IMG/VR virus record: IMGVR_UViG_3300029288_001872 | Span: 96,001 to 160,000 of that record | Strand: one strand, 5' to 3' | Length of the DNA stretch: 64,000 bases | Source: a virus | Lineage: Duplodnaviria; Caudoviricetes | Part shown: positions 7,611-62,388 of the stretch, in pieces | Position numbering within the stretch: position 1 is the stretch's first letter | Layout: each line of letters opens with the position of its first letter | The notes under the pieces: model-generated | Databases searched by the model: none | The model's input: only the letters and a program-made list of their open reading frames with translations | Told to the model about the DNA's origin: nothing | Program-made: the position numbers and the translations under genes

Positions 7611-9936
7611 AAGGAGGGATATATGAAATTTTCAACGATCCATCATTGCAAAGAATTAACTGCAATTGAACCAAATAATGAATTGATTGTCTATATCCAA
7701 GACGAAAAAATAGCATCTTTATATCAAACAAAAGCAGGTTGGTCTTTAAACTTATCTAATATGGATGATATTAAAGCTATCAAAATTTTCTTTTGTCCCT
7801 TTTGTGGAAAGGAATTATCAAAAGAAAATAAGGAGAAATAATCAATGCTTCTTTATATGATTTGTGCTTGTTGGGATAATGGTTATGGTGGTTATGGGTA
7901 CAGAGACCCAAAATCATATACAGAAAGGTTTTATTTCCTTTTGTTTAATTCTACTTATGAACAAAATCCATGGATTTGTAATAATATCTTTAGTGCAAAT
8001 GACGGAAGTGATGTTGAATTTATTCCAAGTGGAAACTAAAAGGAGGGATATATGAAATTTAAATTGAAACTCTTCCATGAAAAATTTATATTGTTCCCGA
8101 GGGTTTGTGATAAGTGTAGGAATTATGTTTTCCTTGAACGAATGTGGAGATTTAAAACTAACGCACAAAATGGTTTTGGGACTAATATATTATGGCCTTT
8201 GTTTCTTTGTAAATCTTGTGCTCCAAATATAGTCTTAGCAAAAAAGTATTTTTCTCAAAATAAATTGTAAATCCTCTTCTTGCTAAAAATGCTCTATTTT
8301 AACTAAAAGGAGGAATAAATTATGTATCAATTCAAAGTTTCTGGCCCATGGTGGAAGATTAAACATCCAAAGAAAAATTATCCTTGGCCTTGCATAAGTG
8401 ATATGAAAAGAATCATAACCATATATGATGATATTTTAAACAAGACTGCGCCAAACACTTATACTAAGGTTACTGGATTATGTTGTTGTAATATCCAAAT
8501 TCCAGATGAAGATACCATTGAAATGAATGAAGAAAAGAAGTTGATTATGACAAATTTTACTGAGATGTGTGGGGGAAAATAATATATGAAAAACTCAACA
8601 GTCACAGATAAATTTACTGGTGAGAAAATCAGAGTTATTAAGCCTTATGGCAGAACGTATTATCAAAGATTGCACGAACTCGTGGAAAGCAACAATAATT
8701 TTCATCCATGCAAAACTTGTGGCAACCCTGTGCAAGAACCTTTAATTTGTCAATTTTGCGGTGAAACTGAACCTAATTAAAAAGAAAGGAGAAACAATCC
8801 ATGTCCTACGACATTTCGTTATGTGACCCAATTACCAAAGAGGTCTTACATCTTGAAGAGCCACATCAATTAAAAGGTGGAACTTACGCACTTGGTGGCA
8901 CCACTGAAATGTGGTTAAATGTGACATATAATTATTCACCTTTCTTTCGTAAAGTCATTGATAAGAATAAGGGCATAAGAAAAATATATGGTCTGACCGG
9001 AGAAGAATCAATTCCTATTCTTGAAAAGGCTATGAGTCAATTAGGTAATGATATTGATGAAGATTACTGGAAGCCAACAGAAGGGAATGCAAAAGACGCT
9101 TTGAAAAAATTGTTGATCTTGGCACAAACAAGACCTGATGGAATTTGGATGGGAGATTAATTTGATGAAAAACAATCCGAAAGCAAAATTCTGGAAGCCT
9201 GCACCAAATCAAAAGAACACCATAACTATTCTACCAAAAGAGGATCATCACTTACTGCACGATTATTTTATTACCAATCATAAAGCTGAGAATAAAAATA
9301 TACAACCGGATATAAGACGCGTTGTTGATTACGAGAATGAACCTTTTGGTTATGCTAAAGAAGAAATAGTTTTGGGAGGGCCAATGCCAAGGTTTGCTGA
9401 TTATACAAAAGAAATGGGTGGAGGCTGGGAAGTAGTTGATGACACCATAAGAAGAACAATACCAAGAATCAATTGGGAACAAGTAAGAAATGAAGAATAT
9501 TGGGAAGAATGGCATTTTGAAAGATACAAACTTTTCCATACTAAAGAATTTAAAAGATGGAGTTTACATTTTAATTTTAATATTATTGGACATTTGCCTC
9601 ATGACATACCGAGAGAAAGAGTCTTCACATGGGCAGAAGAACACATACTCTCTAGATGGCTTCATGATGAAAAAACCATAGAAGAATCAGGAGGTGATCC
9701 AAATATGTCGTTCGAAAAAGAACTACCTATCAATGTCACATTGGAAAGAGCCAAAATTGTCAATGAATGGGTTCCTAAAGAAATAACTGATTACGGAACC
9801 TTGGCAAATCGTTGTTCCAAACTATGGAATTGCGACTTAAGTATAAAAGAAGCAGAACAACTTCTTGAAGAAGCCTATATTGTCCTCAAAACAGAGGGAA
9901 TAAAACCAAATTTCTTCAAAGAACGAAATTGAGCCT

Positions 9937-39843: not shown

Positions 39844-40824
39844 ATGAATAAAGTTAATGTTATCAAGGTATTAGACAGTATTTCGCCTATTTTATCTGAG
39901 GATTATGACATTATCCACTTCAATCAAGATTCCATTTATGCCGAAAGCAACATGATAGGAATTTCTTGCAATTTGGATTTTGGCTTCAAGGCTTCAATTA
40001 GAGGTATTGAATTAATAAAATTACTTAAAAAGATGTCTGGCGATGAAGTAGAGTTTAAACTCACAGACAAAACTTTGTCAGTCAAAGGTGGCGGTTTATC
40101 AGCCAAGTTTAAGAAATATGATAAAGAAAAAACACCACCAGATTTCACTGAATTAGAATTTAAAGAAGTACCAGACAATTTTATTGAAGCAATAACTGCT
40201 TGTTTACCTTCTGTATCAGATAAAGATATTCAAGGAATTTTAACTGGTTTGCATATTGACAATGCTTTAATGTATGGATGCAATAATGTTTCTGTGACTG
40301 AATATGAAATACCAGATATGGATGTAACATTTACACTTCCGAAACAAACTGCTTCTTTGCTGACTAAATTTAATCCAAAATACTATTATATTACTGATAA
40401 CAAGGCCATATTTGCCAATGAAGATAAAACTTCATATTTGTGGTCTGTGCTTATGGCTGGTGCTTATCCAGTTGAGAATATGGTTAAATTGTTGTCTAAA
40501 GAAGGTGATATTTTCTCTTTACCAGAAGAAATAGGTAAAAGAGCAGATATTGTAAGTCTGTTTGCCTATGATGCTCAAGACGGCAGTTCTTTTATTGAAG
40601 TAGATATACAACCAGATAAGATTGTATTAGGCGGTAACAAGTCTTTTGGGAATTTGGAAGATGTGATGGAATATAAGTCGGAAGGAAGTGTGAAGTTTCA
40701 TGTGAATAGTTTGTCTTTGAATCGAGCTTTGTTGATAGATAACAAATTTACATATTGTGGAAATTTCATTGTTTTTGAAAACAGCCAAGTCCGGCATCTG
40801 GTTTGTCTAGTTGACCACGCTTGA
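39844..40824 (+). CDS. DNA polymerase III beta-clamp-like protein
   Basis: Size, LTGLHI and MAGAYP motifs, replication context. Confidence 0.7.
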   Translation: MNKVNVIKVLDSISPILSEDYDIIHFNQDSIYAESNMIGISCNLDFGFKASIRGIELIKLLKKMSGDEVEFKLTDKTLSVKGGGLSAKFKKYDKEKTPPDFTELEFKEVPDNFIEAITACLPSVSDKDIQGILTGLHIDNALMYGCNNVSVTEYEIPDMDVTFTLPKQTASLLTKFNPKYYYITDNKAIFANEDKTSYLWSVLMAGAYPVENMVKLLSKEGDIFSLPEEIGKRADIVSLFAYDAQDGSSFIEVDIQPDKIVLGGNKSFGNLEDVMEYKSEGSVKFHVNSLSLNRALLIDNKFTYCGNFIVFENSQVRHLVCLVDHA

Positions 40825-40844
40825 TAACAGAGTAAATTAGATAA

Positions 40845-40959
40845 GGTATGGTCGGGTCAGGTTTGGTATGGTTGGGTCTGGTGTGGTGAGGTCAGGTAGG
40901 GTTAGGTAAGGTGTGGTAAGGTGAGGGTGTAAGTCTAGAAAATTAGGCTTACACAGTTT
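40845..40959 (+). ncRNA. GGT-NN pentamer array (16 perfect units) with 3' hairpin; candidate gapped guide RNA
   Basis: NN = AT CG CA TT AT TG CT GT GA CA AG TA AA GT AA GA; stem 40927-40937 with 40944-40954, then AGTTT. Confidence 0.88.
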
Positions 40960-40986
40960 TAAAGAAATTAAAAAGGAGAATTCAAA

Positions 40987-46286: not shown

Positions 46287-48732
46287 AAACATAAACATTA
46301 AAGAATTAGTAACTATAGATAAAATAGAAGAGATTGATTATAATGGTTATGTTTATGGATTGACAATTGAAAATGATCCATCTTATTGTTTAGAAAACAA
46401 CATTATAACAAAAAATTCCGATCTACCAGATATTGATGTTGACTATGAAGATATAAAAAGAGAAGATGTAAAAAAGCATTTAAGAGATTGTTATGGAGAA
46501 TACAATGTGGCAGGAATATCAACATTTTTAACATTAAAAGGGAGAGGAGCATTACGAGATGTAGCAAGAGTTTTTGATTTACCATTAAGAGAAGTTGATT
46601 TAGTTTCAAAAGAAATAGAAACAAAATTAGACGGAGACAAACTTTGCGGGCATACAATTGAAGAAGCATGTAAAAAATCTGAAATTGTTGCTTCATTTAA
46701 AAAGAAATATCCAGAAACAGTTCAACTTGCAATAGATTTGGAAGGACAGACAAAAGCAGTTGGTCAACATGCGGCTGGTATAGTTATTTCTGCTGATGAT
46801 TTGAGAAAAGGAGAAAGATGCAATCTCTGTGTTAGAAGCGGAGAAATTGTAGTTAATTGGGATAAAGAAGACGCAGAACAAATGGGTTTAATGAAACTTG
46901 ATGTTCTTGGTTTAACTTCTTTGACTATTATTAATTCTACTAAGAAATTTATTAAAGAAAATTACGATGTTGATATAGAATTAGATAAACTTACATTAGA
47001 TGACAAAGAAATATATGAAGAAATTTCTAAAGGGAATAATGTAGGTTTGTTTCAATTGAACTCACATGGTTTAACTGGGTTGTGCAAAGAAATGGGAGTA
47101 AAAGAATTTAATGACACAGTTCTTGCTACTGCCATCTTCCGACCAGGAGTATTGGGAAGTGGAATGGCAGATGAGTATATTAAAAGGAGGAAAAATAAAA
47201 AGGAAATAAAATATATTCATCCAAAATTAAAAAAATATACAAAAGACACACTTGGAATTGTTTTATATCAAGAACAAGTAATGTGGGTTATGTATGAACT
47301 TGCTGGCTTACCTTGGTCTGTTTGTGATAAAGTAAGAAAAGTAATGGGTAAATCTCAAGGGGATGCAAAGTTTCAAAAATTTAAACAACAATTCATTGAT
47401 GGATGTAAAAAGAATAAAACATTATCAGAAAAAGAAGCAGATAAAGTTTGGGATACATTAGCTTCATTCTCAAAATATGGATTTAACTTAAGCCACGCTA
47501 CTGCATATTCTATGATAACTTATTATTGTGCTTATCTAAAATATTACTATCCTAAAGAATTTCTATGTGCTTGTTTGACCTATGGTGGTGAAGATAAGAA
47601 AGCAGAATATGTCAATGAAGCAAGAAGATTAGGTTTAGAAGTAAGTTTACCAAAAATAAACAAATCGCTTGCTGATGTTTGGTATCCCAACAAAGATAGC
47701 AATATTATTTATGCGCCATTGACTGAAATAAAAGGTGTAGGTAAAACACAAGCAGAAAAAATAATTGAGCAGAATACTAACAAGAAAGTTGGTTTTTTCA
47801 CTATCATGGACCAGTCTGTTGTGCCTGCAAATTCTACTGATGAATTATTGAATAAAGTAGGATTTTACAAAAAAACTTCTTTGACGCAAAAAGAATTGAT
47901 GAAAGCCAGACAATACCTAAATTTTAATCCATTGACTGGTATGAACAGATTTAGTAGATTGCCAAAAGATTTGGATTATTCAGATGATGATATTATTAAA
48001 TGTAATTTGGAAGGATTTAAAGGCAATCTAATTGAAATAAAGAAATATGTAAAGAAGATAGAATGTGATAAATGTGAATTAAGAAAAGAAGCAAAGAAGC
48101 CTGTTTCATCATCATTTGGTAGATATAATATAATGGTTTTGGGCGAAAGTCCATGGATTGATGAGGATCGAGAAGGACTTGGGTTTGTTGGTAAAACTGG
48201 CAAGGAAATATTATGGCCAGAGTTTAAAAAACATGGATTACATAGAGATATGTTTCACATCTCGAATGTGATTAAATGTAAAATTAAGAATCCTTCAAAA
48301 AAACAAATACCTCCTTGTTCACATCACATCATAGAAGAAATAGAAAATTTAAAACCAATTTTAATCTTGGCTTTTGGAAATACCAATGTAAGATTTTTCA
48401 AAGAACAAGATGGTGGAATAATGAAATTGAATGGTGAAACTGAATGGTCAGATAAATTTCAATGCTGGATTTGTTGGTCAATTCACCCTTCTGCTGTCAT
48501 CTATCATGATGCTGAAAACAGACCACTATTTGAAAAAGGAATTAAGAATTTTGCAGATAAAATAAATATGATTGGTGGCAATTGGTTGAGAAAGAATAAA
48601 GAACAAATACTTATTAAAAAATGTTCTTATGGCGGTAAATTTGGAATAGATAATAATGAGTATGAGGAATGCTCCCAATGCAAAATCTGGTTTGATTGTA
48701 CTAAAATTGCGATGAATGAGGATTTTAAATAA
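46273..48732 (+). CDS. dnaE: C-intein + DNA polymerase III alpha C-terminal part + family-4 uracil-DNA glycosylase domain
   Basis: VYGLTIE...IITKN|SDLPDIDVD; HAAG; YGFNLSHATAY; then GESP..ED..G..FVG, SNVIKC, IHPSA. Confidence 0.92.
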   Translation: MIMNKNINIKELVTIDKIEEIDYNGYVYGLTIENDPSYCLENNIITKNSDLPDIDVDYEDIKREDVKKHLRDCYGEYNVAGISTFLTLKGRGALRDVARVFDLPLREVDLVSKEIETKLDGDKLCGHTIEEACKKSEIVASFKKKYPETVQLAIDLEGQTKAVGQHAAGIVISADDLRKGERCNLCVRSGEIVVNWDKEDAEQMGLMKLDVLGLTSLTIINSTKKFIKENYDVDIELDKLTLDDKEIYEEISKGNNVGLFQLNSHGLTGLCKEMGVKEFNDTVLATAIFRPGVLGSGMADEYIKRRKNKKEIKYIHPKLKKYTKDTLGIVLYQEQVMWVMYELAGLPWSVCDKVRKVMGKSQGDAKFQKFKQQFIDGCKKNKTLSEKEADKVWDTLASFSKYGFNLSHATAYSMITYYCAYLKYYYPKEFLCACLTYGGEDKKAEYVNEARRLGLEVSLPKINKSLADVWYPNKDSNIIYAPLTEIKGVGKTQAEKIIEQNTNKKVGFFTIMDQSVVPANSTDELLNKVGFYKKTSLTQKELMKARQYLNFNPLTGMNRFSRLPKDLDYSDDDIIKCNLEGFKGNLIEIKKYVKKIECDKCELRKEAKKPVSSSFGRYNIMVLGESPWIDEDREGLGFVGKTGKEILWPEFKKHGLHRDMFHISNVIKCKIKNPSKKQIPPCSHHIIEEIENLKPILILAFGNTNVRFFKEQDGGIMKLNGETEWSDKFQCWICWSIHPSAVIYHDAENRPLFEKGIKNFADKINMIGGNWLRKNKEQILIKKCSYGGKFGIDNNEYEECSQCKIWFDCTKIAMNEDFK

Positions 48733-58991: not shown

Positions 58992-59651
58992 ATGGCAGCA
59001 AAGAAAGACGTAACTGGAATTGTTCCAAGAAAAGATGTGGCAATCCCGCCTCCACAATTTCAAACTGTTGAGTTTACAATTGTTGGTGATGCTCCTTATG
59101 TCCAACAAAGATTTTCTCAGAAGGCAATTGAGCAAATCAAGGCGGTCCAACTGGCAGGTTCCAAGAGCAAGAAAGGAAAGGCTCGCGAACCAAAAGATTT
59201 TCAAGAATGTTATGAACAAGCTAAACACATTTCGACAGAAGGCTGGTGTGGTATTCCTGCATCTTCCTTTCGTGCTGCAATGATTTCTGCTTGTCGTTTG
59301 GTTGGGTTTAAGATGACTTTGGCTAAACTTTCAATTTTCATTCCTGCTGATGGTTTTGATGTGGTTGATGGAACACCATTGATTAAGTTTTCTAAAGGCG
59401 AACCGCGCTATGTTGAACACGCTATGAGAATTCCTGGTATTGGTGGCGGAGGTACAGATATTCGCCCTCGTCCGATGTGGGACCCAGGTTGGGAAGCAAA
59501 AGTGCGTGTCACTTTTGATGAGGCGCAATTTTCCGCGGAAGATGTAACCAATTTGATGATGAGGGTTGGTATGCAAGTTGGTTTGGGTGAAGGTCGCCCC
59601 GATTCCAGAAGTAGTGTTGGTATGGGATGGGGGACTTTCCAACTGAAATAA
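58992..59651 (+). CDS. Stand-alone RAMP (Cas7/Csm3-like) protein
   Basis: Beta1 VEFTIVGDAPY; GIPASSFRAAM similar to RAMP IPGSSLKGA; C-terminal G-rich loop GLGEGRP-x5-GMGWGTF. Confidence 0.8.
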   Translation: MAAKKDVTGIVPRKDVAIPPPQFQTVEFTIVGDAPYVQQRFSQKAIEQIKAVQLAGSKSKKGKAREPKDFQECYEQAKHISTEGWCGIPASSFRAAMISACRLVGFKMTLAKLSIFIPADGFDVVDGTPLIKFSKGEPRYVEHAMRIPGIGGGGTDIRPRPMWDPGWEAKVRVTFDEAQFSAEDVTNLMMRVGMQVGLGEGRPDSRSSVGMGWGTFQLK

Positions 59652-59703
59652 AATAAGTGTTCTTGAGGGGGTTCTTATAAAGAGAATCTTCTCAAGAAAT
59701 TAT

Positions 59704-60370
59704 GGCAGGCGTGACGACACAAGTTCAGATAGGGAGAGATGCGTTGGGGTGAGTCTTGGACTGTTAAGGCAGGTAAGACATGGCAAGTAAGACATGGCAA
59801 GTTGCAACCAGATATGTTATGGCGGTTTAAGTTATGGTTCGGCAGGCTATGCTAGTCGGGCTGAGGCTGGTTGAGACCCGTTAGGTTATGGCAGGTGTGA
59901 CATGACAAGTGATATACGATTAGTTGAGTTAGGTTTTGGTTGATCGTGTTATGGTTTGGCAGGCCAAGAGTGATGAGATATGTCTTGGTAGGTTAAATTA
60001 TGGCGGGGAGTATCATGACACGGCAGGTATGACGAGACGCCACGAGAGAAGACAAGGAGTGTTGCTGTGCGACTTAACAAGGCAGGCAATTCCTCCTCTT
60101 GGCTAGTCGGGGCTTGGCAGGCGTGTTGAGACTTTACAAGTTGAGTGTAATGAGTTAAGTTCTGTCACGATAGGGTTAGGCAAAGCAGGTACGACGACAC
60201 AAGTTATGGTAAGTTCTGGGTGTTACAATGTGTTGGGTTCAGGCAAGGGTGGCAGGCTATGCTAGTCAGGTTGAGATTAGTTGAGATGATTTCTGGCGAG
60301 TTAAGACATAGCAGGTAGGATGAGTTACGTCCTGATAAGGTTTGTTCTGTCCTGATTTGTCAAGGCAGGC
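59704..60370 (+). repeat. Array 1: 11 units of degenerate (GNN-NN)n pentamers delimited by (G/A)GCAGG
   Basis: Delimiters at 59704, 59768, 59841, 59890, 59958, 60022, 60081, 60116, 60184, 60251, 60310, 60364; unit lengths 4+5n or within a small indel of it. Confidence 0.9.
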
Positions 60371-60401
60371 AAGATAAATAATTAACCACAAGGAGAACTA
60401 A

Positions 60402-60890
60402 ATGATGGTAAAGAAACATTTGGATGAGTTGAACCAAATTATGGAAGAAAATGGTGGATTACTTCGAGCGGAAGATGTTGTTGAATTCGCCAAAAATCCT
60501 AAGACAACTTTGCATAATGCGTTTGAGTGGGATGATAAGAAGGCTTCTTATAAATGGAGGTTATTTCAAGCCAATCAACTCATCAGAGTTGCAGTTACTA
60601 TTCTCCCAAGAGAAAACCAAGAACCCATTATGGTTCGGCCTTTCGTCAGTTTGAAAGAAGACAGATATAATGGTGGAGGTTATCGTTCCACACTGGAAGT
60701 AATGGAAAGTCCAATTCTCAGAAAAACGCTATTGGATGAAGCTAAAGAGGATATGCAAACTTTCATGGATAAATACAAATCTTTGGAAGAACTTGCGGAA
60801 GTCTTTGTTGCAATGGAACCTTTAATTGTTCCACCACCCACTAAAGGACAAAGAAAGTATAAAAGGGTTGAACAACAATTATCAGCTTGA
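60402..60890 (+). CDS. Conserved phage protein embedded between the two arrays
   Basis: LRAEDVVEFAKNPKTTLHNAFEWDD...WRLFQANQLI; RBS AAGGAG. Confidence 0.7.
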   Translation: MMVKKHLDELNQIMEENGGLLRAEDVVEFAKNPKTTLHNAFEWDDKKASYKWRLFQANQLIRVAVTILPRENQEPIMVRPFVSLKEDRYNGGGYRSTLEVMESPILRKTLLDEAKEDMQTFMDKYKSLEELAEVFVAMEPLIVPPPTKGQRKYKRVEQQLSA

Positions 60891-60900
60891 TGTTTTATAT

Positions 60901-61264
60901 GGCAGGTATGGCACGTTTCGATTTGGTAGGACATGGTGTGTTTGGTCGCATTCTGGTACTTCAAGGCAGGTGTAACAAAGACGAGTCGAGATGAGTTCGG
61001 TTGTGGTGAGTTTTAATATGGAAAGATACGTTGAGGTTCGATACGGCAGGTAAGACAAGATAAGACAAGGAGTGGTGCTACTTGCCCCGATTTGTTAGGT
61101 TGAGGAGTTATACGGCAGGTCAGACGTGTCCGGTTGAGACAAGACATGGTGGGATATGACACGGTTTGTCGGGTTGAGATAAGCAAGGCATGGCAGGCGC
61201 GGCAGGTTGAGGCATGGCGCAATGTGACGTGGTGCGCTGGGGCAAGACAAGAAGAGACATAGCA
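60901..61264 (+). repeat. Array 2: pentamer units delimited by GGCAGG
   Basis: Delimiters at 60901, 60965, 61045, 61114, 61192, 61201 and a terminal AGCA at 61261. Confidence 0.9.
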
Positions 61265-61287: not shown

Positions 61288-62388
61288 ATGGCAGGACCAA
61301 AGAAAAGAGAAATATCAGATACGGTAAGTCAAATCAAAGAAGTTGCAAATTCTCCTATTGTTACTGATGATTCACGGGTGGATTTCCTTGATTCTGGAAG
61401 TACATTGTTGAATTTGGCGGCAAGTCAATTTGGTAAGAATGGAGGTTGGGCGCGAGGTCGAATTATCAATATTGTCGGTGATAAAAGTTCAGGTAAATCA
61501 ATCACTTGCATTGAAGCCTGCGCTAATGCCTTCTACAATATTGGAAAGGTAAAATCAAAAATTTATCCAGATGTCCAACAAATTAATATAGTTTACAATA
61601 ATTCAGAAGGGGTTCTTGACTTCCCAATCGAAACCATGTACGGTAAAGCATTTAATGAGTCGGTCAATTGGATTCAAACGCCGATTGCAGAATCTTTCGG
61701 ACGTGACTTTCAACAACGCCTTGCTGCTTTGAAGAAAGGTGAATTTATGTTATATGTTGTTGATTCAATTGATTCTTTGGTGTCTGAGGCTGCCGCAAAA
61801 AGAATGAGTCAAGTGTTGTCAGATAAAAAAGTAGATGGTAGTTATGGTGTTGAAAAAGCAAAATTTTTTAGTTCTGAATTCTTTAATCATCTTTGTGGAG
61901 CAATGAAGGGGAAAGATGCGACATTGATTTGTGTGTCTCAAGTTAGAGAAAATATCTCCACAATCAGTTTTGGAGAACGATATTATCGCACTGGTGGAAA
62001 GGCATTTGATTTTTATAGTCATCAAGTTTGTTGGCTTGCAGTTGTTGAAAAATTAAAAAAGACATTTCGTGGTCAAGAAAGAGTATACGGTGTAAAAACA
62101 CGAGCAAGATTTAAGAAATCTAAAGTATCAAAACCTTTCAGAGAAGCAGATTTTACAATTTTATTTGACTATGGTTTAGACAATGTTTCATCATTGGTTG
62201 ATTATTATTTCGGTCCAAAAGCGAAAGAAATTGAATGGAAAAACGAAAAGTTAAAAACACAAGATTTTCTCCAGCGGCTTGATAATTCACCAGAAGATTT
62301 GGAACTTTTGAAAGACTTGGTTGAAAAAGATTGGCTTGAAATTGAAGAACATGTCAAACCGGAACGCAAACCGAGGTGGACAGATTAA
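61288..62388 (+). CDS. recA: RecA/UvsX-like recombinase
   Basis: DSGST, GDKSSGKS, VVDSI, SQVRENI, TGGKAFDFY, SKVSKPFRE. Confidence 0.93.
   Translation: MAGPKKREISDTVSQIKEVANSPIVTDDSRVDFLDSGSTLLNLAASQFGKNGGWARGRIINIVGDKSSGKSITCIEACANAFYNIGKVKSKIYPDVQQINIVYNNSEGVLDFPIETMYGKAFNESVNWIQTPIAESFGRDFQQRLAALKKGEFMLYVVDSIDSLVSEAAAKRMSQVLSDKKVDGSYGVEKAKFFSSEFFNHLCGAMKGKDATLICVSQVRENISTISFGERYYRTGGKAFDFYSHQVCWLAVVEKLKKTFRGQERVYGVKTRARFKKSKVSKPFREADFTILFDYGLDNVSSLVDYYFGPKAKEIEWKNEKLKTQDFLQRLDNSPEDLELLKDLVEKDWLEIEEHVKPERKPRWTD

Follow-up and report, generated by a model that had tools for sequence, protein, structure and literature searches.

Directly behind the sliding-clamp gene in the 64,000-nt window analysed here (positions 96,001 to 160,000 of the IMG/VR phage record IMGVR_UViG_3300029288_001872) lies an array of 16 GGT-NN pentamers, which is probably a stand-alone vrRNA of the VIPR system aimed at the clamp alleles of related, rival phages. 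We find that its first 12 dinucleotides (NN) spell out the closing codons of the clamp gene, that they fit the alleles of three relatives better than the allele standing next to the array, and that one of these relatives carries, at the same intergenic position, an array that fits the window's allele better than its own. Elements of this kind, and the code by which they recognise DNA, have been published before, and no new system is involved; what gives the case its value is the arrangement with its evolutionary signature, not any novelty of mechanism. On this reading an orphan repeat is assigned to a defined system, with the deployment of its guide documented on five natural haplotypes. Positions are those of the window throughout; genome coordinates refer to the window's own phage (G000; 189,632 bp, 34% G+C) or, where stated, to a complete relative of 187,988 bp (G001).

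The array and the clamp alleles it spells

None of the 16 units departs from the scaffold, and the pentamer pattern is matched 23 times in the window where 0.03 matches are expected. Array and hairpin together form a discrete insert of about 143 nt, absent from three relatives, that consists of a leader, 12 guide units, four near-constant units and a tail made of GGG and an 11-bp hairpin (minimum free energy -14.7 kcal/mol), behind which the sequence reads AGTTTTAAA (Table 1). A weak pair of -35/-10-like boxes (TTGACC, 16 nt, TAAATT; 9/12) is found at 40811-40838 in this AT-rich genome; the -35-like box falls within the conserved clamp tail and the pair would put the +1 at the first array base, and we regard it as a lead for expression of the array RNA, not as evidence. 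A consensus terminator scan gave no match, and the tail of GGG, hairpin and T run could double as a terminator. The array RNA matched no family in Rfam, a blastn search with the locus in 50,697 phage records returned no match, and a search of IMG/VR with the constant tail motif gave 0 matches.

A preliminary description, made from the sequence alone, had proposed that the first 12 dinucleotides mirror the last 11 clamp codons and the stop, and this is confirmed: compared with codon positions 1 and 2 of the window's own tail, which ends VRHLVCLVDHA-stop, they agree in frame and end on the stop codon, at 18/24 bases and 7/12 dinucleotides, the own tail differing from the guide at six read bases in five units. 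Among shuffled guides, 17-22% reach 18/24 somewhere in the genome. Even so, no other site in the 189.6-kb genome fits the guide as well as the own tail, which is only 56 nt upstream of the array, so that the self-match is locally non-random, at roughly 1e-4 by our estimate. When all 16 units are scored, the top site of the own genome is an unrelated one (22/32, 0.69), the clamp tail scoring 21/32 (0.66); with units 1-12 the best self site stands at 0.75, and no self site is found at an NN match of at least 80%.

We compared five clamp haplotypes with 93-96% protein identity, further ones being taken from the 90% protein cluster, and find the guide to fit three of them better than the window's own, in frame in each case. 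Decoded, it reads I-R-H-L-I-C-L-V-D-H-S-stop, the exact tail of G001 (21/24), as expected from the earlier suggestion that it spells a non-self allele; this is the unique best site in G001, and 0/1000 shuffled guides reach that score. The best fit, 22/24, is to L053, which has an I..V..S tail and, in place of an array, a small open reading frame (ORF), and here the match extends to the Leu codon families predicted, TTG as well as CTG. L054/L055, in which the site is empty, the polymerase gene follows and the tail is of the I..I..N type, score 21/24. In L044 the site is likewise empty (stop, 20 nt, next gene), the tail is of the window type (V..V..A) and the score is 17/24. The guide-matched rival alleles are two array-free ones and one array-bearing one (G001). 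The expectation that array-free alleles would fit the guide better than the carrier's own holds for L053 and L054/L055 and fails for L044, which matches no better than self; for that allele this is the outcome that the preliminary description had itself named as refuting.

Wider searches added little to this sample. The exact 12-unit target pattern gave 0 matches in IMG/VR and, when made degenerate at the Leu and stop positions, G001 as the only match; G001 was also all that came back when the clamp protein was scanned against IMG/VR and against JGI metagenome contigs. Clamp loci of the P0002 type (52% identity) have no array and are too remote to be informative. The small ORF of L053 (L053:1832-2041), placed between the clamp gene and a DUF2695 gene, encodes about 63 aa, and its first bases (TGATAATATGGGA) are common to the leader of the G001 array cassette, which suggests that the cassette replaced or truncated an ORF of this type.

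Units 13-16 behave differently. The preliminary description had them cover the sequence past the stop, which is ruled out by matches of only 1-3/8 in all five haplotypes. The last 25 nt of the array, including GGGTG, recur identically at the close of a second array of this phage (genome 1116-1195), in which units 1-12 match G001 at every base and the last four units are unmatched, and similar ends are found on other arrays. We infer that units 13-16 are a constant 3′ end and not guide. Read as a 17th unit, the GATAA before the array fits G001, and the homologous case in G001's own array does not fit.

The array of G001 occupies the same intergenic position with 13 units and has a homologous leader end and hairpin. 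GGT is kept in every unit of both arrays while the NN strings are unrelated, and the hairpin stem is kept between the two through a T-A to C-G double change. The G001 guide addresses a segment of the clamp gene further upstream, at which it scores 20/20 in the window, L044 and L053, 18/20 in L054/L055 and 16/20 in its own allele; because it spells the window-type allele in full, the targeting is reciprocal. Scanned in reverse against both genomes, in 9-unit windows, the clamp gene yielded GG-scaffold guides in these two arrays only, and none in either genome aimed at the window-type tail. Such an allele-linked reciprocal arrangement was not found by text searches of the VIPR preprints, in two of which a term search gives no occurrence of 'homing', 'allele' or 'clamp'.

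The contested segment also carries a distinct evolutionary signature. At codon positions 1-2, clamp codons 286-327 show 0.27-0.30 differences per site against 0.025-0.035 in codons 1-285, in both comparisons involving G001 (Fisher p 2e-11 to 6e-15), i.e., the positions that the guide reads are 8- to 12-fold faster there, and wobble positions only 1.5- to 1.8-fold. The same pattern runs from target to array at the genome 1116 locus (0.31 vs 0.03 at codon positions 1-2). Between the window and L044, codon-family switches (Arg, Leu, stop) have occurred in the last 12 codons at 3 of the 4 possible sites, compared with 2/56 elsewhere (p = 0.001). These switches raise the similarity of the window's tail to its own guide at two units and are therefore not an escape from that guide, which disposes of self-escape by recoding; they might reflect pressure from an unsampled guide. 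Codon usage in the clamp tail, earlier described as unlike that of the rest of the gene, is unusual to a moderate degree, falling within the lowest 3.4% of the genome's 11-codon windows and third lowest among the 316 of the gene, with a G+C content at third codon positions of 0.45 against a mean of 0.26. The accompanying proposal, that the recoded end arrived with the cassette, is not supported, as the window-type tail is also present in the array-free L044 and need not have come with an array.

Kinship with VIPR and a candidate effector

VIPR, first reported in 2026, comprises a small ancestral RAMP protein, Vipr, and vrRNAs of 9-16 GGY/NN repeats with a structured 3′ tail; each GGY is held by one protomer, and the NN pairs read double-stranded DNA, skipping one base per unit, usually the codon wobble (bioRxiv 10.64898/2026.04.26.720920; 10.64898/2026.04.26.720927). 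According to these preprints the natural targets are competing phages and satellites, the characterised systems bind and silence DNA without cutting it, nucleases are present only in some published types, and no self-target of at least 80% is found in the authors' sets. Solo vrRNAs, located away from vipr, match self less well than non-self, and in VIPR-null phages and satellites they redirect a rival's effector (bioRxiv 10.64898/2026.10.15.759431). The assignment made here is to VIPR as a whole, at a level above its seven published types.

The window encodes a candidate effector 18 kb from the array, a 219-aa RAMP protein whose family has more than 6900 homologues and which is present in a single copy in this genome. 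Its AlphaFold2 model (pLDDT 83) has Csm3/Cas7 subunits as top Foldseek hits (probability 1.0, TM-score about 0.45-0.5), and a PDB sequence search gave no match. The fold is that of the class 1 CRISPR backbone at a sequence identity of ~10%, and thumb-driven periodic base flipping, a further trait in common, is reported in the VIPR structure paper (bioRxiv 10.64898/2026.04.26.720927). Unlike class 1 CRISPR, the elements described here have no repeat-spacer array, and their periodicity is 5 nt of guide to 3 nt of target as opposed to 6/6; no other cas genes are found in the ORFs read around vipr (57.8-63.4 kb).

With the type examples of VIPR, from Escherichia phage SUSP1 and a Pseudomonas fulva prophage (bioRxiv 10.64898/2026.04.26.720920), the system shares GGY+NN pentamers in a number inside the published 9-16, the wobble skip, an apparently structured 3′ tail and a small Cas7-like RAMP effector; like them it is phage-encoded and presumably aimed at competing mobile elements. 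It departs from them in several respects. The SUSP1 tail is a pseudoknot, whereas here it is GGG, a simple hairpin and a short T run, a module that follows most GGT arrays of both genomes with stems of 11-16 bp and unrelated stem sequences. The last 3-4 units look constant and not target-specified, the array stands behind a replication gene 18 kb from vipr, the presumed target belongs to an essential replication gene, in the form carried by a rival, and is not a satellite or prophage regulator, and the arrays of the phage's own vipr locus are built of G-N-Y units with GGCA delimiters. The array also resembles the solo vrRNAs of F5 satellites and VIPR-null SUSP1-like phages, which likewise stand away from vipr, match self less well than non-self and serve conflict between close relatives (bioRxiv 10.64898/2026.10.15.759431). 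Unlike those carriers, this phage has a vipr gene, and by the 20-kb rule of the same study a distance of 18 kb makes the array a borderline 'solo' case; the solo targets published there are vipr, other vrRNAs, satellites and host REP decoys, while the present guide adjoins its own phage's copy of the gene that it targets in rivals and a relative has the reciprocal guide.

Taken together, we propose that the ~143-nt cassette, inserted directly behind the clamp stop codon, would be transcribed and loaded, most simply by the phage's own 219-aa Vipr, with one protomer on each GGT and the NN pairs exposed, by analogy with the published VIPR work. The filament would pair with double-stranded DNA two bases at a time, every third base being skipped, and form an R-loop roadblock. 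The guide would thereby address the rivals' clamp 3′ end, I-R-H-L-[I/V]-C-L-V-D-H-[S/N]-stop, and spare the own V..V..A allele at its six differing bases, so that in a mixed infection transcription or replication would be blocked at the clamp locus of related phages, to the presumed benefit of the carrier. The clamp 3′ end would then be a site of reciprocal allele-specific conflict, with a relative aiming a mirror-image guide at the window-type allele. A guide that adjoins its carrier's insensitive copy of the target and reads the alleles of close relatives would give a concrete instance in which near-identical phages exclude each other, in allele-specific fashion, at an essential replication gene. 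The contested 40 codons, whose read positions evolve ~10x faster than the rest of the clamp gene, would in turn provide natural data on target escape from a wobble-blind guide, by amino-acid changes and by Leu, Arg and stop codon-family switches.

Several points weigh against this proposal. No sampled allele matches all 12 units, and over all 16 the best match is 24/32 (0.75), under the 80% rule of the VIPR authors, so the targeting depends on leaving units 13-16 out of the guide. Silencing at 21-22/24 and sparing at 18/24 presuppose a corresponding mismatch tolerance of this Vipr. The arrays of its own locus, as noted, are of G-N-Y units with GGCA delimiters, and they have no hairpin tails. 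A diffusible clamp protein may complement a silenced rival gene in mixed infection, and the harm may therefore come from the DNA roadblock instead. The sample consists of five haplotypes, without an outgroup to order events.

Table 1 Features of the clamp and vipr loci, in window coordinates
Feature	Coordinates	Strand	Details
Sliding-clamp gene (DNA polymerase processivity factor), 326 aa	39844..40824	+	phrog_947, E 4e-22; relatives 93-96% identical
Site matched by the G001 guide	40735..40764	+	codons IDNKFTYCGN; 20/20
Own near-target, last 11 codons and TGA	40789..40824	+	units 1-12 match 18/24; mismatches in units 1, 4, 5, 11, 12
Cassette leader	40825..40844	+	second stop TAA, then ~17 nt ending GATAA; from alignment with the L044 empty site
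Guide proper, GGT-NN units 1-12	40845..40904	+	rival clamp tails matched 21-22/24; perfect scaffold over all 16 units, 40845-40924
Units 13-16, near-constant 3′ module	40905..40924	+	NN = AA GT AA GA
Tail of the putative vrRNA	40925..40967	+	GGG, 11-bp hairpin 40927-40954, then AGTTTTAAAGAAA; insert ends here
vipr, 219-aa RAMP (Cas7-like), candidate effector	58992..59651	+	phrog_4652
Main VIPR locus arrays	59700..61264	+	units start GGCA, pentamers G-N-Y + NN; two units parsed by eye to RecA-like peptides
Accessory gene, 162 aa, within the main arrays	60402-60890		no Pfam match; phrog_15946 (function not known)

Other readings of the clamp-side array

It is possible, though we think it unlikely, that the array works with another phage's effector. 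GGT-hairpin arrays would then be cognate to a 188-aa RAMP-like protein of the G001 type, and the guide would redirect a rival's effector onto the rival's own clamp gene, in co-infection only. The two phages are ~85% identical and have different RAMP genes at different loci, and for this reason the hijack remains plausible. In G000, the vipr gene, its arrays and the accessory gene (58992-61264) lie between gp32 and uvsX; in G001 nothing is found there (81346-81498) and uvsX directly follows gp32. Conversely, the RAMP-like gene of G001 (126575-127141; L040:6575-7138), whose product is 22% identical, lies ~1 kb from a GGT-hairpin array, is absent from the homologous site of G000 and faces there a 68-aa zinc-ribbon-like ORF (G000, 9493-9699). 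The locus arrays of G000 differ in architecture from the GGT-hairpin arrays, all well-matched solo arrays found only in G000 point at G001-type alleles, and a precedent exists in the solo vrRNAs of VIPR-null phages and satellites (bioRxiv 10.64898/2026.10.15.759431). On the other hand, every GGT falls within the G-N-Y pattern of the phage's own locus, so its own Vipr may accept GGT; GGT-hairpin arrays also occur in G001 and are thus not specific to genomes without the 188-aa protein, whose sole link to Vipr is a tblastn match at the identity given.

The position of the array also recalls another class of phage element. In T4-like phages, free-standing homing endonuclease genes (seg and mob) undergo intronless homing and bring about marker exclusion. 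With these the cassette shares a small insert between conserved genes, presence or absence among relatives, a target in the adjacent gene, a carrier allele protected by polymorphisms and locally hyper-divergent flanks; unlike them it would rely for recognition on an RNA guide with a RAMP protein encoded in trans, and the resemblance is so far geographical only. Somewhat speculatively, a solo vrRNA that stands immediately behind the gene it reads in rivals, and is linked to an insensitive allele, could serve as an RNA-guided cassette for allele drive or marker exclusion: a Vipr filament would hold up replication or transcription at the allele of a co-infecting rival, into which recombination-dependent repair would then copy both guide and insensitive gene end. 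Were this so, the drive would account for the mosaic, fast-evolving 3′ ends and the reciprocal guides seen at the clamp locus, and it would amount to an RNA-programmed counterpart of T4-like homing that needs no nuclease.

Homing in the stricter sense, i.e., a selfish cassette with an immune gene end whose target is stalled or damaged and then repaired from the array-bearing genome, as proposed in the preliminary description, strikes us as rather improbable. The same site is empty in L044 and L054/L055, holds a small ORF in L053 and arrays in the window and G001; two array-free alleles are matched better than self; the target lies only 20-56 nt from the insertion point, the geography known from the T4-like endonucleases; and the window tail has an excess of codon-family switches and rare codons. 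A divergent tract runs from target to array both here and at the genome 1116 locus, where the array-free G001 allele is matched in full, and such a tract is compatible with co-conversion. It is, however, enriched in read positions, and its wobble divergence is unsaturated, which speaks against a plain import from a remote donor. The 162-aa accessory protein has no recognisable domain, no nuclease was found, and the characterised VIPRs silence and do not cut. The immune tail type of L044 needed no cassette to arrive, the window's switches make its tail more and not less similar to its own guide, G000 and G001 have common cassette flanks but differing gene ends, the best-matched alleles include the array-bearing one of G001, and the haplotypes sampled include no recombinant showing transfer.

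Self-regulation, in which weak binding of the own clamp tail would attenuate read-through into the downstream replication genes, we consider very improbable. The self site is the best in the genome and immediately upstream, and arrays stand in 3′ flanks where co-transcription is possible; but three other allele types beat self, the mismatches are spread over 5 of the 12 units, the G001 guide at the same site is directed at a different part of the gene, with its own allele the poorest fit, and the VIPR authors' sets hold no self-target at their threshold. It is hardly credible that the array is a non-functional, decaying repeat, a chance resemblance or a mere terminator region: the self-match alone is not significant genome-wide, yet the scaffold stays perfect around variable NN, the hairpin stem has undergone a compensatory change, several of about ten such arrays in the genome have significant targets in G001, and chance itself is ruled out by the pentamer count and by the shuffled guides, none of which reached the rival-allele match.

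Other arrays of the two phages

The ~ten GGT-NN arrays across the genome of the window's phage are all on the + strand, most of them ending in GGG, a hairpin and a T run, and where the spacing is readable the distance from the stop codon before them is a few to ~25 nt. At genome 1116-1195 (L003), units 1-12 of the array match the glycosyltransferase-like allele of G001 (117934-117969), which is array-free, at 24/24 and its own at 16/24. The array at genome 186370-186464 (L002:10371-10465), which has two degenerate units in its middle and no counterpart at the same site of G001, matches with its first 16 units the dTDP-sugar epimerase gene of G001 (113666-113713) at 28/32 and its own at 22/32. 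A further array present only in G000, behind a GHMP kinase gene, scores 20/24 in G001 and 17/24 in its own genome, the G001 site lying just downstream, on the opposite strand and outside the open frame. The primase array (19703-19762) breaks the pattern, in that the array-free G001 allele (47880-47960) fits it no better than its own; the adjacent-gene rule is therefore frequent and not universal. This array is hybrid-looking: units 4-12, including the three 'constant' end units, equal the codons of its own primase exactly, units 1-2 fit the array-free G001 allele, and neither genome offers a good full target.

Behind the NAD-dependent epimerase gene the two phages carry the same 19 NN units (genome 185027-185121; G001 112664-112763), with one extra 5′ unit in G001. 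Both arrays match the adjacent gene tail at ~0.70-0.75, with an Arg CGN/AGA family difference among the mismatches, and their real target is presumably a third allele. In G001, a 24-unit array stands directly behind uvsX (82587-82706); its guide matches the C-terminal region of the window's UvsX (~62203-62265) at 31/42 and its own at 25/42. Four more arrays of G001 (86989-88623) have GGC/GTC-type units and GGATTT-type ends without a hairpin; no significant target was found for them in either genome, and they resemble the unit style of the main locus of G000 even though G001 is without that vipr. Finally, the contig of the window's phage ends in a ~130-nt repeat (genome 189499-189632 and 1-134) that falls inside a glycosyltransferase-like gene and looks more like an overlap left by the assembly of a circular or circularly permuted map than like true terminal repeats.

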